Virus record (IMG/VR): IMGVR_UViG_3300045988_088999
Location: 48,961-112,960 of that record
DNA: 64,000 nucleotides
Source of the DNA: a virus
Direction: 5' to 3' (one strand)
Shown here: piece after piece, positions 1 through 48,135 of the stretch
Layout of the letters: the number at the start of each line of letters is the position of its first letter
Numbering within the stretch: the stretch's first letter is position 1
Notes under the pieces: model-generated
What the model was told of the DNA's origin: nothing
Database searches by the model: none
The model's input: only the letters and a program-made list of their open reading frames with translations
Made by a program: the position numbers and the translations under genes

Positions 1-407
1 TGAATACTGATGGAAAATATGTGTTTGAAATCAAAGAACGCACTATCGTTCCTACGCTTACTTCACAAGTAGCAGTTAGTAGCGATATTAACGCAAGACG
101 TATTGTATTTAAAGTACCAGCAACCATTGATGGATACGATGTAAGGGACTCTAATTTTACTGTTAGATGTCTTAATGCTGCTGGTGCGCTTAATGAATAT
201 AGTATGACCAATAAGAGGGTCGTAATTGAAAATAATGCGACCTATATTTATGTTGAATGGATAATGGACGGCTCTGTTACACAAAAAAGCGGCGTTGTAA
301 AATATGATGTGTCTATTTACGATGCAACTAAATCAATATATGCTTGGCATAGCTTGCCATCCACATTCAACGTGGAAGCTGGTATATCAGAGATTAACTC
401 TGATTAA
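1..407 (+). CDS. tail-fibre N-terminal domain protein (5' end lies outside window)
   Basis: Frame is open from nt 3. Residues NTDGKYVFEIKERTIVP...VVKYDVSIYD align with the N-terminus of the 1019-aa fibre ORF at 4007 (LNGTYIFEIVNRTIVP...VTYDVSIYD). Confidence 0.6.
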   Translation, partial: NTDGKYVFEIKERTIVPTLTSQVAVSSDINARRIVFKVPATIDGYDVRDSNFTVRCLNAAGALNEYSMTNKRVVIENNATYIYVEWIMDGSVTQKSGVVKYDVSIYDATKSIYAWHSLPSTFNVEAGISEINSD

Positions 408-435
408 AATATTAACTCTTTTGGAGGATTAAATT

Positions 436-1644
436 ATGGGAAAACTTTTAAGAGATGAAACTTTTGTTGCTGCTATGAATAAGCAGAACGCCATACTGGA
501 AGTTCTTGCTGCCGATAAGATACAGCAGATGTCTGGTAACTGGGCAGAAGTTGCTACTCTAGTTCGTGCTGGTTATGCAGAATATGTTTATGATTTTGGC
601 GACCAGTTTAAGGATAAGTGGACTGATACCGCTAACTCTAATAAGGAATATGCGAACTATAATTGGCACGTTGGTCATTTCGGCAATTACTTACTTCAGG
701 ATGGCGAAACTGTACCGGGTATGACTATTCAGGCACACTATGCGCATCCGTTTGGTGTACAGTTTAGTCACCAGAGAGCATTTTTGAAGTGTGATACCGA
801 ATTAGCCGCTGGTACTTACTACTTTACGATAGAAACTAAGTGGGGTAACAATGTTGCTGCTGGTGATATTGTCAGCTTCACTCTTACTAAGCCGGTTCCT
901 GCTGGTGGACGTATTTCAGGTTGCTATGGAGCACCTGACCAAGTAAAAGCTAACTGGCGTATCTATACTTGGGCGGCAGATGGTAAGACTAAGGTTGAAG
1001 ACAACATTACTCCGACATTTACCGCATCTGGTACGAATCTTGGTACTATGAAGCATGATAAGCGTAACGGCAACTTGAACTCCTGTCAGGAAATGGCTTA
1101 TGGATGGAACAGGTGGAAAACATCCGCACTACGTCAGTACCTAAATAGCTCTGCTACTAAGGGTAACTGGTGGGTAGCACAGGATGAGTGGGATATTGCA
1201 CCTGACGAGTTGGCATTCCATGACGGTTTCTTGACTGGTATGCCAGCTGACCTTTTAGATGCTATCAAGCCTGTTAAGATTGTTACCTATCCAAATACCG
1301 TAAATGACGATATTGCTGGTAATACCCCTGACGTTACCTACGATAAGGTATTCTTGCCAGCACTTGAGCAGATTTATGTAAATCCTCAGAAAGCTGGCGA
1401 GGGAGATGCTTGGGAATACTGGAAGCGTGTTGCTGGCACCACCACTCCGTTGGCTCAGTGGGGTACTTATCCTCAGATGATTACCTATGCTATTGAGAAT
1501 ACTTCTAGCGCACAGGGTGTGCGCTTGCGGTCTGCTTATCGTGGCAATGCTATTAGTGCGTGGTATGTCAACTCTAGCGGTTACGTCAACGGCTACGGCG
1601 CGAGCAACTCGCATAGGTTCTCGCCCGCTTGTGTCATCTGCTAA
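436..1644 (+). CDS. DGR variable (target) protein, putative receptor-binding fibre component with a C-terminal variable region
   Basis: GGAGG RBS upstream of the ATG. The last ~40 codons (nt 1513-1634) are an adenine-mutagenised copy of the repeat at 2259-2380. A stem-loop follows the stop. Confidence 0.85.
   Translation: MGKLLRDETFVAAMNKQNAILEVLAADKIQQMSGNWAEVATLVRAGYAEYVYDFGDQFKDKWTDTANSNKEYANYNWHVGHFGNYLLQDGETVPGMTIQAHYAHPFGVQFSHQRAFLKCDTELAAGTYYFTIETKWGNNVAAGDIVSFTLTKPVPAGGRISGCYGAPDQVKANWRIYTWAADGKTKVEDNITPTFTASGTNLGTMKHDKRNGNLNSCQEMAYGWNRWKTSALRQYLNSSATKGNWWVAQDEWDIAPDELAFHDGFLTGMPADLLDAIKPVKIVTYPNTVNDDIAGNTPDVTYDKVFLPALEQIYVNPQKAGEGDAWEYWKRVAGTTTPLAQWGTYPQMITYAIENTSSAQGVRLRSAYRGNAISAWYVNSSGYVNGYGASNSHRFSPACVIC
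1513..1634 (+). repeat. DGR variable repeat (VR)
   Basis: 122-bp alignment with 2259-2380. The 16 mismatches all fall where the other copy has A (A to G/T/C). Homology stops after ...cccgCttgtGt, which fits an IMH boundary. Confidence 0.9.
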
Positions 1645-1653
1645 TCCTAGTAA

Positions 1654-1690
1654 TCTTGCACGAATACTTTCGTGCAAGATTTTCTATTTA
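1654..1690 (+). terminator. 11-bp stem-loop (tcttgcacgaa/ttcgtgcaaga) plus T-tract, 20 nt downstream of the VR
   Basis: Perfect inverted repeat followed by ttttctattt. Could serve as a rho-independent terminator and/or the hairpin that DGRs need downstream of the VR for homing. Confidence 0.7.
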
Positions 1691-1783
1691 GATTAAAAGC
1701 AGTAATTTCCTTAGAGAAATACTGTTGTCCGAATATTAACAATAAAAGCAAATATATAAAAATTAAATTAAGGAGGCCGCACA

Positions 1784-2080
1784 ATGTCTGTTCCGGCTGG
1801 TCAAAGAAAAGAAAATAGACTAGAAGTCGTTATGCAAGCCAGAGAGCTTGCAGTCTACACTTTAAGAATCACATCTAACAAGAATGTATTTATTCCTGAT
1901 TACGATGAATCGGTCAAACTAAAAATCCAAGATTCCGCATTGACCATCTTTAATAATCTTATGGATGCAAACAACATTAGAGTTGACGATAATGTTGGAA
2001 GATGGCAGGAGCGCGATAAGCTCCAAAGAGATGCGGCAAAAGCGTGTAATACACTATTAAACCTTATATACTTGGCATAG
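1784..2080 (+). CDS. avd: Avd-like DGR accessory protein (small helical protein)
   Basis: 98 aa, AGGAGG RBS. Sits between the target gene and the TR, as in canonical target-avd-TR-RT cassettes. Avd-like size and helical composition. No strong motif, so the call rests on position. Confidence 0.5.
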   Translation: MSVPAGQRKENRLEVVMQARELAVYTLRITSNKNVFIPDYDESVKLKIQDSALTIFNNLMDANNIRVDDNVGRWQERDKLQRDAAKACNTLLNLIYLA

Positions 2081-2258
2081 ACGTTATATCATCTAAGAGC
2101 CAGCCGTATTAAGTATTGGTCTGAATCTGTCATTTCAGTCAGAGGTTTAATTCGTAAGTGGAATCACAGCGATTGTACTCGGTATGGACATCTCCTTAAA
2201 GAATCTAAAGAAAAAGACGAAACTTAATTTTTATATATATTTGGGTTATAACCTGATT

Positions 2259-2380
2259 CAGAATGTGCGCTTGCGGTCTGCTAATCGTGGCAATGCTAAT
2301 AATACGTGGAATGTCAACTCTAGCGGTAACGTCAACAACAACAACGCGAGCAACTCGAATAGGTTCTCGCCCGATTGTAT
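2259..2380 (+). repeat. DGR template repeat (TR)
   Basis: Invariant partner of the VR. The frame reading NVRLRSANRGNANNTWNVNSSGNVNNNNASNSNRFSP is rich in AAC (Asn) codons, and each is altered in the VR. Confidence 0.9.
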
Positions 2381-2572
2381 TTGAAAGTCCCTAATAAAAA
2401 ATCTTACGCATAGCGCAAGCTAGGTTCTCGACTTCAAACACAAGGAGGTTATAACCCTGTTATCTTGCTAAAAAAAATATAAAAGATAACTAAACCACTC
2501 TATGCCGATGGCGTTGGTTTTCGAGCCAGTACGCCTATATACGGCTTAGTTTAGTTGTTGTGTCAAAGTTTA
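2381..2572 (+). other. TR-RT spacer, probable structured part of the DGR template RNA
   Basis: ~190 nt non-coding stretch between the TR and the RT start, where DGR spacer RNA lies in characterised elements. Confidence 0.4.
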
Positions 2573-3526
2573 ATGAATAATAATTAGGAATCGAATCAAG
2601 TAGTAAATGTCCTAGACTTCGAGCACCTACTTGATTCTTTATATAAGTGCAAGAAAAATGTTAGCTGGAAAGAATCTGTCGCTAATTTCTATATTCATGG
2701 AATCGAACAGGTTCTTAAACTAGAAGAACAACTTGCAAACGGAACATATCAACCACGTCCAACTAAGACTGTTCATATCACTCATCCGAAAGAAAGAATT
2801 GCTGTAAGCATAGCTTTCAGAGACAGAGTATATCAACGTAGTCTTAATGATAATATAGTGTATCCGTTAATGACTCGAAGTTTTATTTATGATAATTGTG
2901 CTTGTCAAAAGGGTAAAGGAACCGATTTCGCTAGAGGCCGTTTAAAATGTCATCTGCAAAGATGCTATAGAAAGAATGGTCTTGATGCTTGGGTTCTGCA
3001 ATGCGACATTAAGCACTATTATGATAATATGCGGCATGATACAACAAATGCCTTGTTCAGAGAGAAATTACCAGTAGAATATGCAGATAGAGTCTGTAGA
3101 ATATTAAATGAACAATATCTTGGTGATACAGGGTATAATCCCGGTAGCCAAGTTGTTCAGATTGCTGGTATTTCTGTTCTGGATAGACTTGACCATAAGA
3201 TTAAAGAACGTATGCACATTAAGTATTATATTCGTTATATGGATGACTTTATTCTTATTCATCACGATAGAAATTACTTAATCAAGTGTATGCACGAGAT
3301 TCAAGAAGAACTAGCTAAAATTGGTCTTGAATTGCATCCTAAGAAAACCAAACTCTATAGAGTTGGTAAAGGTATTCCATTCTTAGGATTTAAATTCAGG
3401 CTTACCGAAACCGGTAAGGTCGTTATGTCAATTCTTGGAGATAATGTTAAGAATGAAAAGCGTAAATTACGTAAAATGGTTAAACTTGTTGTAAAAGGTC
3501 GCAGAACCAAAGAAAAAATAGATTAG
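2573..3526 (+). CDS. DGR reverse transcriptase, with an in-frame TAG at codon 5
   Basis: RT motifs sit upstream of the tool's GTG at 2858: FEHLL..YKCKK, TYQPRP, FRDRVYQRSL, FIYDNCACQKGKGTD, PGSQ, RYMDDFILI, ELHPKKT, FLGFKF. The frame is open from 2588. ATG 2573 (MNNN) is separated from it only by TAG 2585-2587. Confidence 0.85.
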
Positions 3527-3623
3527 TGCTATAGTTGTTGGGTTGCTCATGCAGAGCATGGTAATTCATATAAACTAATATAGCGAATGAATAAATTCTA
3601 CGATGATTTATGGAGGTAGAATT

Positions 3624-3803
3624 ATGATTTTTCAGAAGGCGATTATGAATCCTCACGAGGAGAAGATGGTCGAATATCGCAATGCTTAGATTAGCAATCA
3701 ACAGTCTTTGATTGAGTATATTGCTGTTATGAGTGATATTGACCTACCTGTTGAAGAAGAGAAAACCGCTAGTATGGGCGGCATGGAAGATATGGAGGGC
3801 TAA
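3624..3803 (+). CDS. small hypothetical protein (59 aa only if the in-frame TAG at 3687-3689 is read through; otherwise a 21-aa peptide)
   Basis: Strong GGAGGT RBS 6 nt before the ATG. The frame stays open after the TAG until the TAA at 3801. Confidence 0.35.
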
Positions 3804-3806
3804 TAT

Positions 3807-3959
3807 ATGACCGATATGGAACTGTCCGCACACGGAAAGAAAGCTAAGTATTACTACGATTCTGGTTTCTGGACTAAGAAAATGGTTTATAACGTAACCA
3901 AAAAGGGCTGGATTACTCCAGAAGAGTACGAGTATATTACTGACGATAAGTACATTTAA
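3807..3959 (+). CDS. xkdX: XkdX-like small tail-associated protein
   Basis: 50 aa; FWTKKMVYNVTKKGWITPEEYEYITD matches the XkdX family signature (W.K.MV...V.KGWIT.EEY.EIT). GGAGGG RBS. Confidence 0.7.
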   Translation: MTDMELSAHGKKAKYYYDSGFWTKKMVYNVTKKGWITPEEYEYITDDKYI

Positions 3960-3966
3960 TAAGTTG

Positions 3967-3999
3967 GGTGTAGCATTAGCTACACCATTATTTTTAATT
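3967..3999 (+). terminator. rho-independent terminator
   Basis: 8-bp stem ggtgtagc/gctacacc with loop atta, then attatttttaattt. Confidence 0.7.
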
Positions 4000-4006
4000 T
4001 AGGAGG

Positions 4007-7000
4007 TTGAATAGCTTGAACGGAACTTATATTTTTGAAATTGTAAACAGAACAATCGTTCCAAGCGCAACTGAAGAATTGGCTGTTGTAAATGATAATG
4101 ATTCAAGATATATTACCTTTAAGATTCCATCAGTGATTGATGGTATTGATATTACCGATAAGATTCTTACTGTCAGATATGTCAATTCTCTGAATCGTTA
4201 TGACCAGTTTTTCTGTAATAGCAGAGAGGTTATTACGGAAGGTAACGAGCAGTTTGTCCTGTTCGACTGGGTTCTTGATTCTAATGTCACAAGTGCTAAA
4301 GGCACTGTAACTTATGATGTATCAATATATGATACAAATGATATGACTAACGTATCACAATATATTCTTCACACAAAACCAGCTACTTTTCAGGTTGAGG
4401 AAGGATTACTTGATACCGGTGCGCCTATCGAAGATGAGAATACACTTCAGGCAGCTATTGATAGTTTTAATGCTATCGCTGCTAAATATTACCATGATAC
4501 GCTTGCAGCATCAAAAGCGGCTCAAGCGGCTGCTGATGCTGCCGCTAAAAGTGCTGCATCGTTAAAGGTAGATACTACACTTACACTTTCTGGCTATGCC
4601 GCTGATGCAAAAGCTGTCGGAGATAGATTGACCGGTAAAGCAGAATCGTCTGAAGTAACCTCTATTAGAAGTGATTTACAGAATGAAATTGACAGAGCTA
4701 CTGATGCGGAAAGTCAGCTAAAGGAAGATTTAGAAATCAGCAAAATTTTTAAAACTTCAAACATTCTTTCAGCCAGTGATTATAATTTTAAAAAGAATTA
4801 TTATTACAGTCCGTCTGTCAACGATTTTGTTTCCAGAAATGGAAATATTGCGTATAATCAGCCTATTTCGGCTGGTGAAAGCGAAGTATATGTGTCAAAT
4901 GCAAGTATTGCTGTATTTTTGGACAAAGACAACAGAGTAATTAGTCATAATGAATCAAGTACAACTGTGGAATCATTTGCAGTTTACACAACGCCAGCCG
5001 AATGTAAATCAATAATGGTTAGTTGGTATTATACAGCAGATATTAACAAATTATACTTTGCACAATACAATTCTGGCGCACTCTACACAAAAAGAAATGC
5101 ACTAACAAAAACATTGTTTTCGAACATTGATGCCTCACAAGCTAATGTAAATGGGTCAAGATTAACAGACGCGGTGCGTGGCAAAATACTTGAAGGTAAT
5201 ACAAACATAGGTAAAACTTATGACGTAGACATTAAACAGGGCGTTAATTTTATCATTAAAATCAACCCCAAAAATGCAAACGTAACAATTAGCGAAATTA
5301 CAAAAGACGGTTCCCAAAACTACATTAACTATAATCAGCATATTTCCAACAATGGGTTATACAGATTTACTGCAAGCACAGATATTTTAGGGCTTAGATT
5401 CACAGACATGACAGAAGAAATTAAATTTTCTGTGTATCTTCCAAACGATGACAACAAAGCACTTGAACTTTTTTTCCCGGAGCAATTCCGTCCTGATAAA
5501 AATATCAAAGAAAGAAATACCGTTTCTGGGTATAGAATTAACGCACTGGAACGAAAAATTGACACCGCCGCAACTGGAAATATTACTTTCTATGATGTCA
5601 GCGGATGCGAATATATCCGAATCAGCCCATTCAGATTTTACGGAACGCATGGGTACGCATTTTTTTACAACAACGGCTTTGTGCCTAACATCACAACTCA
5701 CATTGAACAAGTAAAAATTATTGATTCAAAAGAAACATTAAGTTTCCAAGACACGGTTATCAAAGTGCCAGATGGATGCAACTATTTTGGCATGACGTGG
5801 CTAAATGAAAATAATTACGTTCCAAAAGTCACTAAAATGCTATTTGCAGAAAAAGAAAATTCTAATCTACAAGACTTTTATGGAATTTTCAAAAATTTTG
5901 GCAACCAAAATTGCTATAGTTTATTGTCACTTATTGCTAATTCAACAAAATCCACTAACTTGACATCTCAAACCCTTAAAAAACTAACAAAAAATGACAT
6001 CTCATTTGGACACATGGGCCAACTTGTAATTAAAGATGGCATGTGCTATGCAAGCTTTTTGCAAAACAGTGGAACGGATGGAGAAGCCCTATACAGTGAA
6101 ACAAGCGAACTTGTCCTTGCAAAATTTTTGCTTTCAGATACACTGTCGGATAGCTTTTCGCCTGATACAAACACTCAAGTCAAAGCAATAGGAAAACTCG
6201 GAAGTGCTTGTGCAGGACATATTGCAAAATCAATATATAAGGATAATGCAATGTGTTTAATTGGCAATAAACTGTATATTACATTTATGTTTATTTCTGA
6301 GACTGATTCTGACGCACACCTGTTTAGAAAAGTATATAATATCAGTTCTGACACATTTGAGGACGAAGTAGCTTGCGAAATTGAATATAAGGGTAAAACA
6401 TATCCGTTTACAAACAGCACAATCAACATGATTTACGGTGAAAATCATTTAAATCAAAATGCTAGTGGAATCATGGAAATTGTAAGCGAATGGAGCAAAT
6501 ACAATTCGGAATACTATGCAACCGGAATCAACGGTGACAAGCCAAACAACGGGTTTATTATTAAAACGTCTGATTTTAAGAAATATTATTTTGTTGATGT
6601 ATTGCCATTCAATGACAACGGAATAGCAGAAATTGCATCTATTGTGTACGATAACAAGTTGTATGTCGCGTGTCGTCAAAATTACGGGCTTCCATATCTA
6701 CTTTTAGCTTTTTATAACCTACAAAACGGAACATGGGGTACACCATACAGGATTCAAGACGGGAATGTAAGACCTTGGTTTTACAAAAAAGACGGGGCGT
6801 TATATTTAATTAACACAATCGAAGAGTATTACCGCAGATATACTAATATTTCTAATGTTTTAACATCCGGCTATCTTGGTGCATCAGCACCAATCAAAAT
6901 AATCGCTACATTATGTAATTGTGGAAATTATATTGCAACATCGGAGTATAACAAGAATACATACTATGTGTGTACATATAAAGGAACAATTTATTTTGGA

Positions 7001-7066
7001 ATATTAGACGTTATCAAATATGACGAGACTATCGTTAATAACAAATTGCTAAAACTACTGGAATGA
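4007..7066 (+). CDS. tail fibre protein (1019 aa); the true start is probably the TTG at 4016
   Basis: N-terminal domain paralogous to ORF 1-407. Ala-rich coiled segment (AAKYYHDTLAASKAAQAAADAAAKSAAS). Long beta-rich C-terminal part. The AGGAGG RBS directly abuts the first TTG. Confidence 0.75.
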   Translation: MNSLNGTYIFEIVNRTIVPSATEELAVVNDNDSRYITFKIPSVIDGIDITDKILTVRYVNSLNRYDQFFCNSREVITEGNEQFVLFDWVLDSNVTSAKGTVTYDVSIYDTNDMTNVSQYILHTKPATFQVEEGLLDTGAPIEDENTLQAAIDSFNAIAAKYYHDTLAASKAAQAAADAAAKSAASLKVDTTLTLSGYAADAKAVGDRLTGKAESSEVTSIRSDLQNEIDRATDAESQLKEDLEISKIFKTSNILSASDYNFKKNYYYSPSVNDFVSRNGNIAYNQPISAGESEVYVSNASIAVFLDKDNRVISHNESSTTVESFAVYTTPAECKSIMVSWYYTADINKLYFAQYNSGALYTKRNALTKTLFSNIDASQANVNGSRLTDAVRGKILEGNTNIGKTYDVDIKQGVNFIIKINPKNANVTISEITKDGSQNYINYNQHISNNGLYRFTASTDILGLRFTDMTEEIKFSVYLPNDDNKALELFFPEQFRPDKNIKERNTVSGYRINALERKIDTAATGNITFYDVSGCEYIRISPFRFYGTHGYAFFYNNGFVPNITTHIEQVKIIDSKETLSFQDTVIKVPDGCNYFGMTWLNENNYVPKVTKMLFAEKENSNLQDFYGIFKNFGNQNCYSLLSLIANSTKSTNLTSQTLKKLTKNDISFGHMGQLVIKDGMCYASFLQNSGTDGEALYSETSELVLAKFLLSDTLSDSFSPDTNTQVKAIGKLGSACAGHIAKSIYKDNAMCLIGNKLYITFMFISETDSDAHLFRKVYNISSDTFEDEVACEIEYKGKTYPFTNSTINMIYGENHLNQNASGIMEIVSEWSKYNSEYYATGINGDKPNNGFIIKTSDFKKYYFVDVLPFNDNGIAEIASIVYDNKLYVACRQNYGLPYLLLAFYNLQNGTWGTPYRIQDGNVRPWFYKKDGALYLINTIEEYYRRYTNISNVLTSGYLGASAPIKIIATLCNCGNYIATSEYNKNTYYVCTYKGTIYFGILDVIKYDETIVNNKLLKLLE

Positions 7067-7112
7067 TAGCCAACCTGATAACTAAATGAGATTTTAGCAT
7101 ACTTATAACGAG

Positions 7113-7748
7113 GTGATAATTATGGTTAAAACTTATAGCGTAAAAAATCAAGGTAATGTCAAATTATCTACAAACTTTACCGTAAAAGAGTTCGCCTGCA
7201 AAGATGGTTCCGATTCTGTTCTTATCGACATTGCTCTCGTTGAAGTCCTACAAAAAATTCGTGAACATTTTGGCAAACCAGTTATAATAAATTCTGCGTA
7301 TCGTACACCAGAGCATAATCGTAGGGTCGGCGGTACTTCCGGTTCATATCACGTAAAAGGTATGGCCGCTGATATTCAGATTTCTGGTGTATCAGCAGTT
7401 GAGATTGCTTATTTTGCTCAGACTATTACTAACGGTGTTGGTGTTTACTACTATGGTAACACTAACTTTGTTCATGTAGATACTAGACAAAATAGAACTT
7501 TCTGGCTATGTGCGCAAGCTGGACGTTACGAATATTACAGAACTGATTTAATGCCAATAATCAAACGTGGAACAAATGTTGGCAAGGCTTCTGCTGTAAA
7601 GTTTGTTCAAAAGAAACTTGGTTTACCTATTGACGGTCAATTTGGAAAAAATACTGAAAATAAGGTAAAAGAGTTCCAGAAAGTACATGGTTTAACTGCT
7701 GACGGAATTGTTGGAATGAACACTTGGAAAGCAATGTTTGTTAGATAA
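7113..7748 (+). CDS. endolysin: M15-family zinc peptidase with C-terminal peptidoglycan-binding domain
   Basis: SAYRTPEHNRRVGGTSGSYHVKGMAADI matches the peptidase M15 (YcbK-like) motif. The C-terminus LGLPIDGQFGKNT...GLTADGIVGMNTW is a PG_binding_1-type repeat. Confidence 0.75.
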   Translation: MIIMVKTYSVKNQGNVKLSTNFTVKEFACKDGSDSVLIDIALVEVLQKIREHFGKPVIINSAYRTPEHNRRVGGTSGSYHVKGMAADIQISGVSAVEIAYFAQTITNGVGVYYYGNTNFVHVDTRQNRTFWLCAQAGRYEYYRTDLMPIIKRGTNVGKASAVKFVQKKLGLPIDGQFGKNTENKVKEFQKVHGLTADGIVGMNTWKAMFVR

Positions 7749-7759
7749 TCTAAGGAGAA

Positions 7760-8077
7760 ATGAATATGACTATTGAACTGTTTTGTACTTTGCTTCTTGC
7801 TTTTGGTACTCTGACTACAATCGTTGTTGAGTTCCTAAAGAAGATTCTTACTGGTCTAAAGATTAACTACAACACATCCGCTGTTGCTCTTGGCACTGGT
7901 GGACTTGTTGGTGTAGTTGGTACTTGTGCGTACTTTGTAATGGCAAATATCGCATTTACTCCACAGAGTATCATGTGGATTATTTTTGAAGGTATCTGTG
8001 TCATTATGGGTTCACAGCTAGGCTACGATAAGATTGTGGCAATAATTAAACAAATAACTGCTAATAAACGGGCATAA
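7760..8077 (+). CDS. holin-like membrane protein
   Basis: 105 aa with 2-3 predicted TM helices and a charged C-terminus, immediately downstream of the endolysin. Confidence 0.6.
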   Translation: MNMTIELFCTLLLAFGTLTTIVVEFLKKILTGLKINYNTSAVALGTGGLVGVVGTCAYFVMANIAFTPQSIMWIIFEGICVIMGSQLGYDKIVAIIKQITANKRA

Positions 8078-46661: not shown

Positions 46662-46736
46662 TGGAGCGTCATATTGGAGTCGAACCAATCTAAAAGAGAT
46701 TTGCAGTCTCTCGCCTATCCGTCTGGCACATGACGC
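46662..46736 (-). tRNA. tRNA-Cys (anticodon GCA), CCA encoded
   Basis: Hand-folded cloverleaf: acceptor GCGTCAT/ATGACGC, anticodon arm AGAGA-CTGCAAA-TCTCT, T-arm ATTGG-TTCGACT-CCAAT. Confidence 0.8.
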
Positions 46737-46862
46737 ATATTTGCAATTTAGGTTTTGCGAACCACACATCGAGCATATACTCCGTTAAATCCCCTTGTGG
46801 TACAATCACTCCGAGACGGTTTTGTAACACCGTATGCTCCATTTTGTTCATCTTTACGGTCA

Positions 46863-46953
46863 TGGCGTGGTAGAAGGGATTTGAACCCCTGCACGGCCTA
46901 CGCCGCCTACTTGCTTTCCAAGCAAGCCCCTTCGACCTCTTGGGTACTACCAC
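46863..46953 (-). tRNA. tRNA-Ser (anticodon GGA), type II, CCA encoded
   Basis: Acceptor GTGGTAG/CTACCAC, anticodon arm CTTGC-TTGGAAA-GCAAG, 19-nt variable arm, T-loop TTCAAAT. Confidence 0.75.
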
Positions 46954-46956
46954 ATA

Positions 46957-47187
46957 TTATGCCTTAGTTACTAAAGGCATAACGCGAGTATCGTTGCATC
47001 CAGCGGTTTCATACCTAGTGAATACACGATATTTTCTATCAGATTTCAGAGTATCTTTATAATACTTCAAAATCCTTAAACCGTATTTACTCTTAGACGT
47101 TTTATTATTAACTTGATAATTAGCCCAGTCAATAATCTCTTTTCCAGTAAACATAGTTCCGTTTTGATAGCTCAGAATATTTTTCAT
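46957..47187 (-). CDS. small hypothetical protein (76 aa) inside the tRNA array
   Basis: GAGGT RBS; ORF flanked by tRNAs. Confidence 0.5.
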   Translation of the reverse strand: MKNILSYQNGTMFTGKEIIDWANYQVNNKTSKSKYGLRILKYYKDTLKSDRKYRVFTRYETAGCNDTRVMPLVTKA

Positions 47188-47204
47188 TTGTTACCTCACA
47201 ATAA

Positions 47205-47281
47205 TGGTGTTTCCAGAATGAATCGAACATTCGACCTCAATCTTATCAGGATTGCGCTCTAACCAACTGAGCTATGGAAAC
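47205..47281 (-). tRNA. tRNA-Ile (anticodon GAT), CCA encoded
   Basis: Canonical cloverleaf: GTTTCCA-TA-GCTC-AGTTGGTTA-GAGC-G-CAATC-CTGATAA-GATTG-AGGTC-GAATG-TTCGATT-CATTC-TGGAAAC-A-CCA. Confidence 0.9.
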
Positions 47282-47310
47282 ATAAATTGCTGTCTTTCCA
47301 GCAGTCATCG
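47282..47310. repeat. 29-nt motif ataaattgctgtctttccagcagtcat (5-bp hairpin tgctg/cagca), copy 1 of 2, immediately 5' of a tRNA
   Basis: Identical copy at 48832-48860. Confidence 0.5.
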
Positions 47311-47429
47311 GTTTATCCGCAATGTGCTTGTTCCTTAACACAAACACGGCATACTGTCATATCACGCATTTACTATATTTTTTACGCATACCAGCTACAA
47401 TAGTTGCAACTCGAAAACTACTTACCGCG

Positions 47430-47517
47430 TGGTGCGCCCGGTGGGACTTGAACCCACGATAGGAATAATCCACCCCGGATTAAAAGTCCGGTGCTATACC
47501 AACTTAGCTACGAGCGC
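47430..47517 (-). tRNA. tRNA-Lys (anticodon TTT) with an unusual 17-nt variable region
   Basis: Acceptor GCGCTCG/CGGGCGC (one G.T), anticodon arm CCGGA-CTTTTAA-TCCGG, T-arm GTGGG-TTCAAGT-CCCAC. The variable region GGTGGATTATTCCTATC is far longer than in normal Lys tRNAs. Confidence 0.6.
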
Positions 47518-47656
47518 AAATGAAAGCACGAATACCCGCCCACGTGCATGGTACTTGCTCTTCTGTCTTGTCAGTACCTCCCAAGTCCATTAACTCTATG
47601 GACACGATAGTTAAAAATACTTGCCTATACCTATTCTACCACGGCATAGGTGCGAT

Positions 47657-47744
47657 TGGAGCCAGTGACAGGACTTGAACCTGCGAGAACCCTTTCGGCA
47701 TCGGGATTACAAAACCCGCGTTCTACCAACTGAACTACACTGGC
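47657..47744 (-). tRNA. tRNA-Thr (anticodon TGT) with an unusual 17-nt variable region
   Basis: Acceptor GCCAGTG/CACTGGC, anticodon loop TTTGTAA, T-arm GCAGG-TTCAAGT-CCTGT. Variable region ATGCCGAAAGGGTTCTC. Confidence 0.6.
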
Positions 47745-47842
47745 AAATCTAAAAGACACATTAAAAATTGAACAATAAAGCTACTCAAAATTTAACAAGA
47801 GTTTGCTGGATGTGTCTTTTCATATATAAAAATAAAGGAGGG

Positions 47843-48079
47843 TTATTTTCTTACCTTCATATCTAACATAGTAAGCCTATCTTCACGCCTAAAAGAAATT
47901 ATATCATACCATCTTTCTAAGATGTATTTTAGCTGTCTAAGTTCACTCTCGTTGAACGGTTCACGTTCATCTCTTAGATATAAAGTAACAATTCCATTTT
48001 CTTCACCAATCTTTAGTCGGGAAATCTTGCTCATAATGTTATCATCAGCAACTTCACCCAACATTTGAAAGAAAACCAT
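47843..48079 (-). CDS. small hypothetical protein (78 aa) inside the tRNA array
   Basis: ORF between tRNA genes. Confidence 0.45.
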   Translation of the reverse strand: MVFFQMLGEVADDNIMSKISRLKIGEENGIVTLYLRDEREPFNESELRQLKYILERWYDIISFRREDRLTMLDMKVRK

Positions 48080-48135
48080 AGGATTATTATTATCAATCTA
48101 CTGCATCGGATTCATTCCCCTTCTTTTTTAGATTT

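Follow-up and report, generated by a model that had tools for sequence, protein, structure and literature searches.

The window analysed here is a 64,000-nucleotide (nt) stretch of the IMG/VR virus record IMGVR_UViG_3300045988_088999 (positions 48,961 to 112,960), and its first 3.7 kb hold a complete diversity-generating retroelement (DGR) cassette on the plus strand, made up of a target gene, an Avd-sized open reading frame (ORF), a template repeat (TR) and a reverse transcriptase (RT). Our subject is the short region at the 3′ end of the target gene, where the variable repeat (VR) gives way to a perfect inverted repeat. Coordinates are those of the window, and features lie on the plus strand unless stated. 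The target gene (436-1644), taken from the ORF list, encodes 402 amino acids, stops at a TAA codon (1642-1644) and carries the VR at its 3′ end (1513-1634 for the whole TR-homologous stretch, with diversified positions from 1516 to 1612). Residues 219-399 of its product match Pfam DUF6273 (E = 3e-11), and the protein has 361 relatives in viral contigs. Between the target gene and the TR, in the position that Avd occupies in phage BPP-1, sits an Avd-like accessory gene of 147 codons (1784-2227), whose translation runs through an in-frame TAG at 2078-2080; this ORF gave no Pfam match. The TR (2259-2380) was delimited by VR/TR alignment. The RT (2573-3619) matches Pfam RVT_1 (E = 9e-17) and contains the stretch NPGSQVVQIAG, which we take to be the GxxxSQ motif, a hallmark of DGRs. 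Its frame also holds in-frame TAGs, and its end was set at the fourth of these (codon 349), the true stop being uncertain.

Relatives of this RT are 45-70% identical, and a TR/VR pair adjoins the RT in 65 of 80 genome loci. Four phages with target proteins about 94% identical (that of the window, L001, L002 and L004) have nearly identical TRs, and their VRs differ at TR-adenine positions, which argues for recent DGR activity. No second VR for the same TR was found in the 64-kb window, which therefore offers no internal replicate. For comparison, relatives were drawn from IMG/VR and GTDB genomes in three samples. Sample 1 comprises loci encoding target-protein relatives 43-94% identical, and sample 2 loci matching a degenerate DNA pattern for a C-terminal PACVIC-stop. 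Sample 3 consists of bacterial and archaeal species genomes with RT relatives 45-61% identical, in which the VR was located solely by its A-biased similarity to the TR.

The VR (1513-1634) and the TR (2259-2380) differ by 15-16 mismatches, every one at a TR adenine, a rule that also holds in 62 related loci. An earlier note on this DNA, made from the letters alone, had described the homology as ending abruptly in flanks that diverge completely, as at an IMH/IMH* (initiation of mutagenic homing) pair. The abrupt end is confirmed by the alignment, in which the final matched base is T1634/T2380. Complete divergence holds for the sequence beyond, which is unalignable, but not for structure, as the TR flank has a 7-bp hairpin of its own (2403-2419). 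The last diversified position, 1612, lies upstream of an A-free, GC-rich tract, GGTTCTCGCCCG, common to the VR (1616-1627) and the TR (2362-2373), with 8 G or C in 12 nt. It is followed by an IMH-like tail, CTTGTGT (1628-1634), the TR counterpart of which is ATTGTAT (2374-2380), and C1628 and G1633 differ here from TR adenines. Opposite A2374, the adenine of ccgATTG, the VR has C in 48 of 49 protein-anchored loci and, opposite the equivalent adenine, in 44 of 53 loci of the independent RT-anchored set; all other TR-adenine columns contain mixtures of A, C, G and T in the VRs of the protein-anchored relatives. This fixed C belongs to a GCT (Ala) codon in the clade of the window and to a CTT (Leu) codon in a different one, and with two different reading frames involved, selection on the protein is an unlikely cause. 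Judged from these alignments, C1628 is a fixed difference of the IMH/IMH* type and not a product of mutagenesis, and G1633 is one too, in the window's own small clade only.

The position of the boundary is narrowed down by L002, where TR and VR have three substitutions in common inside the GC-rich tract. Positions beyond the tract stay different, among them a T/C difference that has not been homogenised. These shared substitutions, together with the unchanged positions beyond, indicate that TR-to-VR transfer ends within GGTTCTCGCCCG, and they bear out the IMH/IMH*-like pair of the earlier note. The tract at 1616-1627 is likely the zone where information transfer ends, the counterpart of the (GC)14 of BPP-1. 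At the opposite edge of the VR, an 8-bp palindrome, AGCGCACA-ggg-TGTGCGCT (1507-1525), straddles the 5′ boundary. It is confined to the window's clade, with no counterpart in 19 other representative loci; given this restriction, it is probably a coding coincidence.

Downstream of the boundary lies a perfect 13-bp inverted repeat (1652-1681), with arms AATCTTGCACGAA (1652-1664) and TTCGTGCAAGATT (1669-1681) and a TACT loop (1665-1668). It had previously been described as a perfect 11-bp GC stem-loop 20 nt after the VR. The repeat is indeed perfect, but the 11 bp are just its inner part, and with five of 13 pairs being G-C (38% GC) it is not a GC stem; the gap from the end of homology (1634) measures 17 nt to the 13-bp stem and 19 nt to the inner 11-bp stem. 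Folding of 1620-1700, which had been proposed as a check, gave -22.9 kcal/mol as RNA (z = -4.3) and -14.9 kcal/mol as DNA (z = -4.75), and for either molecule none of 200 shuffles folded as well. Perfect short-loop hairpins of at least 12 bp number only three in the whole 64-kb window. A T-rich tail, TTTTCTATTTA (1680-1690), detected by a terminator scan, gives the structure a terminator-like look in this phage. An Rfam scan of window positions 1-8000, with E up to 1, returned nothing relevant, and neither the hairpin nor the TR spacer is represented by a curated family.

Between the hairpin and avd we also observed an imperfect second stem-loop (~1698-1726) and a promoter-like site (TTAACA, 16 nt, AAAAAT; 1736-1763). 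The insert of about 100 nt that separates the hairpin from avd (102 nt) is specific to the window's clade. By eye, the hairpin arms resemble the GC-rich VR end in some loci; this likeness appears in both orientations and was taken as chance in GC-rich sequence.

The hairpin is conserved in position across the relatives. The 133 viral loci of samples 1 and 2 yielded 59 distinct hairpins. In 85% of these, 7 bp or more pair perfectly in a stem lying no more than 65 nt past the point where homology stops; of 5000 random 65-nt windows taken at those loci, 4.1% contain such a stem. In sample 3, whose genomes are labelled as Clostridia, Saccharibacteria, Collinsella, Prevotella and others, such a stem is present in 38 of 47 distinct hairpins (81%). 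Stems in samples 1 and 2 have a mean GC content of 0.76 and are most commonly 8-10 bp long. These 59 distinct hairpins and the 47 from RT-anchored loci support the proposal of the earlier note that this is a DGR homing hairpin, in that homologous DGRs carry a stem-loop at the same place.

The stem sequences themselves vary freely while pairing is kept. MAFFT failed to align the hairpins alone because the stems are too unlike, and constant artificial anchors were therefore added to obtain a loop-centred ungapped alignment, the anchor columns being unpaired and outside the pairing counts. Among 16 hairpins with a 4-nt loop, both partners vary at each of the 10 pairs, and 95% of the cells are paired, compared with 52.5% after shuffling and 41-49% with slid partners. 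The covariation called for at the outset is thus present. An internal stem mismatch occurs in just 6 of 116 distinct sequences, four of them G-T on the sense strand and two C-A. Loops in the clade are mostly CACC, CACT, CAC or CCCACGGA, the last amounting to an apical CAC with two further pairs and a bulged A, and CGCT and a few GCAA also occur; the TACT of the window fits a YAC pattern. Some loci have more than one hairpin. In L082, L084 and L089, two stand in tandem ~10-70 nt past the VR with AATC before each (AATC-TCGGACGAA-CACC-TTCGTCCGA and AATC-CCGGACGAA-CACC-TTCGTCCGG), and in L011 and L012 a second hairpin follows one more AATC.

The interval between boundary and stem contains a repeated motif. 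In the window, ATC occurs at 1636-1638, 1644-1646 and 1653-1655, with spacings of 8 and 9 nt, and the last copy forms part of the stem base. Relatives typically have three (A)ATC copies between boundary and stem, the first lying within coding sequence in a frame that varies by clade. The 20 distinct spacers of sample 1 hold 56 ATC against 11.4 expected, a count reached by none of 2000 shuffles, and TR flanks of equal length hold 4. Sample 3 has 110 against 24.7 expected, with a shuffle maximum of 40 and 7 in the TR flanks; the modal spacing is 8 nt, and in 36 of 40 cases the last copy touches the stem or extends into it. Sample 2 was left out of this count because its search pattern contains TAATC. 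Our literature searches turned up no repeated ATC-type motif in any description of a DGR target site. Pairing of the array with GAT repeats in the TR spacer was considered, and inspection gave no consistent pattern.

Both elements are tied to the presence of the DGR. Twelve loci (L050, L056, L057, L059-L063 and L065-L068) encode a homologue of the target gene and have no RT or TR within 3.5 kb, and they have neither ATC array nor hairpin; the gene stops at TAG, and the ribosome-binding site of the next gene follows directly. What they lack is one continuous block with the ATC motifs, the hairpin, avd, the TR and the RT, and it looks as if everything from the ATC array to the RT had been deleted or never acquired. 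The reverse situation is found in Saccharibacteria loci without detectable similarity to the N-terminal part of the target protein, which keep the hairpin and about three ATC motifs; four such loci have no target-protein similarity whatever at E up to 1e-3. Genomes labelled Candidatus Saccharibacteria with the same RT clade and an ATC-plus-hairpin target include L164, L167, L169, L171-L173, L180, L181, L185, L187, L195 and L223. Two further loci, L021 and L055, have a hairpin and an avd start after the target gene, but the downstream sequence available for them showed neither TR nor RT; they may be decayed or split DGRs that retain the target signal.

The TR flank carries a different set of elements. 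Its hairpin, CTTACGC-ATA-GCGCAAG (2403-2419), lies 22 nt downstream of the TR and has 7 bp with one non-Watson-Crick pair. Most relatives have a stem of 7-8 bp (G-U allowed) with an ATA, ACA, GCA or CGTAA loop 15-25 nt after the TR. This hairpin is probably a part of the spacer RNA and not a target signal. A motif C[AG][TC]AG is present in 34 of 56 TR flanks and in 0 of 56 VR flanks, and an ACAAGGA-like motif lies ~45-80 nt after the TR in 45 of 56; together with the hairpin, these are probably spacer-RNA elements used for priming, and none of the TR-flank elements matches an Rfam family. In addition, 10 nt of the TR 3′ end, TAGGTTCTCG (2360-2369), are repeated directly after the TR-side hairpin (2421-2430), and by eye degenerate versions of this repeat seem present in several relatives. 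A megablast search of window positions 400-3700 against GenBank phages returned one match only, 93 nt long (2482-2574), to the human faecal phage MT835664 at 84% identity. Its location in non-coding DNA, within the spacer that separates TR and RT, points to conservation of an RNA.

In our assessment, window positions 1616-1681 are very probably the cis-acting recipient signal of this phage DGR, marking the VR and not the TR for installation of cDNA. The signal would begin with the GC-rich tract where transfer ends, continue through the VR-specific tail with its fixed C1628 and the three (A)ATC motifs, and close with the 13-bp repeat and its TACT loop. Adenine-mutagenised cDNA would be installed at the VR, and the VR-specific flank, namely C1628 and the ATC array, would tell recipient from donor. 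By analogy with BPP-1, the repeat at 1652-1681 may extrude, either as a hairpin when the sense strand is single-stranded or, where the DNA is supercoiled, as a cruciform. Once extruded, it would raise the efficiency of cDNA integration at the VR 3′ end, with the point of integration not set by the hairpin. Hairpin and TTTTCTATTT may also stop part of the transcription from the target gene in this AT-rich phage. GC skew was considered as a sign that the target is co-directional with replication and was set aside; it is positive on the plus strand and merely tracks gene orientation, both switching at ~8 kb.

More tentatively, and with somewhat less than even confidence, we propose that the three (A)ATC motifs, spaced 8-9 nt apart with the last abutting the stem, form together with the YAC-type loop a clade-specific target recognition code of a widespread gut DGR lineage. 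Such a code could do for this lineage what the 21-bp IMH element, the recognition of which is not understood, does for BPP-1, and its reader, whether the RT-Avd-RNA complex or a host factor, might act on the sense strand in single-stranded form.

Several points weigh against assigning a recipient role to 1616-1681. The function proposed for this clade is carried over from BPP-1 by analogy, and the hairpin of the window is atypical, at 38% GC against a family mean of 76%. Its stem exceeds the 7-10 bp found in the BPP-1-type set, and TACT departs from GRNA. The T-rich tail, the 102 nt to avd and the promoter-like site at 1736-1763 make a pure terminator role possible in this phage. High-confidence GC-rich inverted repeats downstream of the IMH were reported in only 34% of DGRs (PMC5758913), and the hairpin element is thus not universal among them. 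The covariation alignment, moreover, was made from preselected hairpins centred on their loops, and the loci are related and not independent; less bias therefore attaches to the positional statistic, in which random windows served as the comparison.

The hairpin might instead be nothing but a Rho-independent terminator of the target gene, without any role in DGR homing. It is the strongest site of the terminator scan in window positions 1-8000 (13 pairs, then TTCTATTTAG), and the 102-nt spacer, the second imperfect hairpin (~1698-1726) and the promoter-like site (1736-1763) that separate it from avd make a separate transcription of avd, TR and RT plausible. Terminators following the target gene are known from some DGRs, although after the IMH they were found in a minority of surveyed DGRs (PMC5758913). 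We nevertheless consider this explanation unlikely. The T-tract is missing in 56 of 59 distinct homologous hairpins of samples 1 and 2 and in 45 of 47 of sample 3, with at least 5 T in the next 8 nt in the remaining 3 and 2, and among the 59 the T-rich tail is confined to the window's own clade and L099. T-rich 8-mers are also common in this 39% GC genome, where they occupy 6.9% of positions. In most relatives the ribosome-binding site and start codon of avd come ~5-25 nt after the hairpin, and homologues without a DGR lack the hairpin as well, although such genes, too, must have a 3′ end. With a T-rich tail in so few hairpins, termination is not the conserved function. The idea that the structure doubles as the gene's terminator, raised in the earlier note, applies to this phage only, in which termination may be an added function.

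A role at the RNA level, in which a stem-loop located at the target mRNA's 3′ end, or within the avd 5′ leader, stabilises the transcript or tunes avd translation in place of a DNA structure, appears to us a little less probable still. It would agree with the location directly upstream of the avd ribosome-binding site in most relatives, with the stable RNA fold and with the four of six internal stem mismatches that are G-T on the sense strand. However, ~100 nt lie between the hairpin of the window and avd, non-Watson-Crick pairs are rare in stems (absent from 110 of 116 distinct sequences), and the few mismatches occur in both orientations (4 G-T, 2 C-A), as fits a structure needed on either DNA strand. 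As a test of RNA against DNA function, the G-T and C-A counts are not decisive, with only six cases (4 vs 2). The hairpin is also tied to the ATC array and to the VR side, and the genetics of BPP-1 place the requirement in the DNA target (PMC3240598). As for a functionless chance palindrome, nothing but the AT-rich background speaks in its favour, and we give it next to no credence: a rough estimate from base-pairing odds expects ~0.006 perfect 13-bp short-loop hairpins in 64 kb, none of the 200 shuffles folds equally well, and the comparative data, in which position is kept and stems covary in ~100 distinct relatives, already refute it.

Further features of the cassette concern its decoding. 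Every in-frame stop inside the Avd-like and RT genes is TAG (2078-2080, 2585-2587, 3524-3526, 3581-3583 and 3617-3619), and conserved protein sequence runs on past these codons, for example in the RT C-terminal CYSCWVAHAEHGNSYKLI. The TAG of avd is replaced by CAG (Gln) in L002, and the RT of L001 has one additional TAG. This suggests that the phage reads TAG as glutamine. No suppressor tRNA was found among the 13 tRNAs of the window, which form a cluster on the minus strand at 46662-51583 (46.6-51.6 kb). Relatives in IMG/VR measure 115-150 kb, in keeping with a large phage.

How the cDNA of a DGR finds and replaces its target is a mechanistic step that is still open (PMC12875486), and knowledge of the cis-acting elements comes almost entirely from the single phage BPP-1. 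The locus described here belongs to a large DGR clade of gut phages and prophages (Clostridia, Saccharibacteria, Collinsella, Prevotella and others), in which the recipient signal can be read from comparative data. The signal of this clade provides concrete mutations to test and, for the use of DGRs as in vivo mutagenesis tools, a second natural design to follow when they are retargeted. Of all the features, only the triple ATC array would reward experimental work.

In BPP-1, the inverted repeat is needed for efficient, though not absolutely for any, homing; its structure counts and not the sequence of its stem, its loop is sequence-dependent, and the spacing between repeat and VR can be 4-34 bp (PMC3240598). 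The repeat forms a hairpin or cruciform in supercoiled DNA (PMC3240598) and does not set the integration point (PMC3240598; PMC12875486). Its requirement was confirmed in an E. coli reconstitution, where homing was favoured with the sense strand as lagging-strand template, and the stem-loop was proposed to prolong the open state (PMC12875486). The boundary of marker transfer lies inside (GC)14 (PMC3240598). In the BPP-1 sequence, this tract is followed by the 21-bp partly homologous element, a TAG stop codon and the hairpin GCGGGGCC-GAAA-GGCCCCGC, with no ATC array.

The repeat of the window resembles the BPP-1 hairpin (Guo et al. 2011, PMC3240598) in lying just past the VR/TR homology, in being absent in that form on the TR side, and in its place between the stop codon of the target gene and avd. 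It shares with BPP-1-type hairpins a 4-nt loop and, at 17 nt, a spacing inside the published 4-34 bp, and in its clade the stem sequence is likewise free with pairing kept, and the loop sequence is conserved. In the comparison recommended in the earlier note, spacing agrees and loop sequence does not: the GRNA of the BPP-1 type is matched neither by TACT in the window nor by the clade consensus, which is CAC(C/T) or else CAC at the apex plus a bulged A. The stem of 13 bp and 38% GC also departs from the GC-rich 7-10 bp of that set, which the stems of relatives do fit, and the three (A)ATC between boundary and stem and the T-rich tail of the window are further differences. Similarly, the boundary corresponds to IMH/IMH* of BPP-1 in that a GC-rich, A-free tract common to VR and TR marks the 3′ limit of mutagenesis and is followed by VR/TR differences that are not homogenised. 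Unlike the BPP-1 IMH, the tract has 12 nt with 8 G/C as against 14 of 14, the residual similarity spans 7 nt with two differences (one of them clade-fixed) as against 21 bp with 5, and the remainder of the VR-specific flank is the ATC array.

Like an intrinsic terminator, the structure has its stem-loop right behind a stop codon and a T-rich run behind the stem-loop, but the T-run is interrupted and not conserved, and conservation tracks the DGR and not the end of the gene. Group IIC introns offer another parallel, drawn by analogy (PMC3240598), since a DNA stem-loop is part of their target, structure matters over sequence, and the RT is of the same lineage; that stem-loop is terminator-like and recognised as single-stranded DNA. 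Group IIC introns, however, reverse splice downstream of the stem-loop, whereas here cDNA would replace upstream sequence and no intron RNA is involved. Set beside these systems, the hairpin is what one would expect to find in a DGR that looks active, a normal component of a kind already known. Its form is specific to the clade; the ATC array and the YAC-type loop are not seen in BPP-1.

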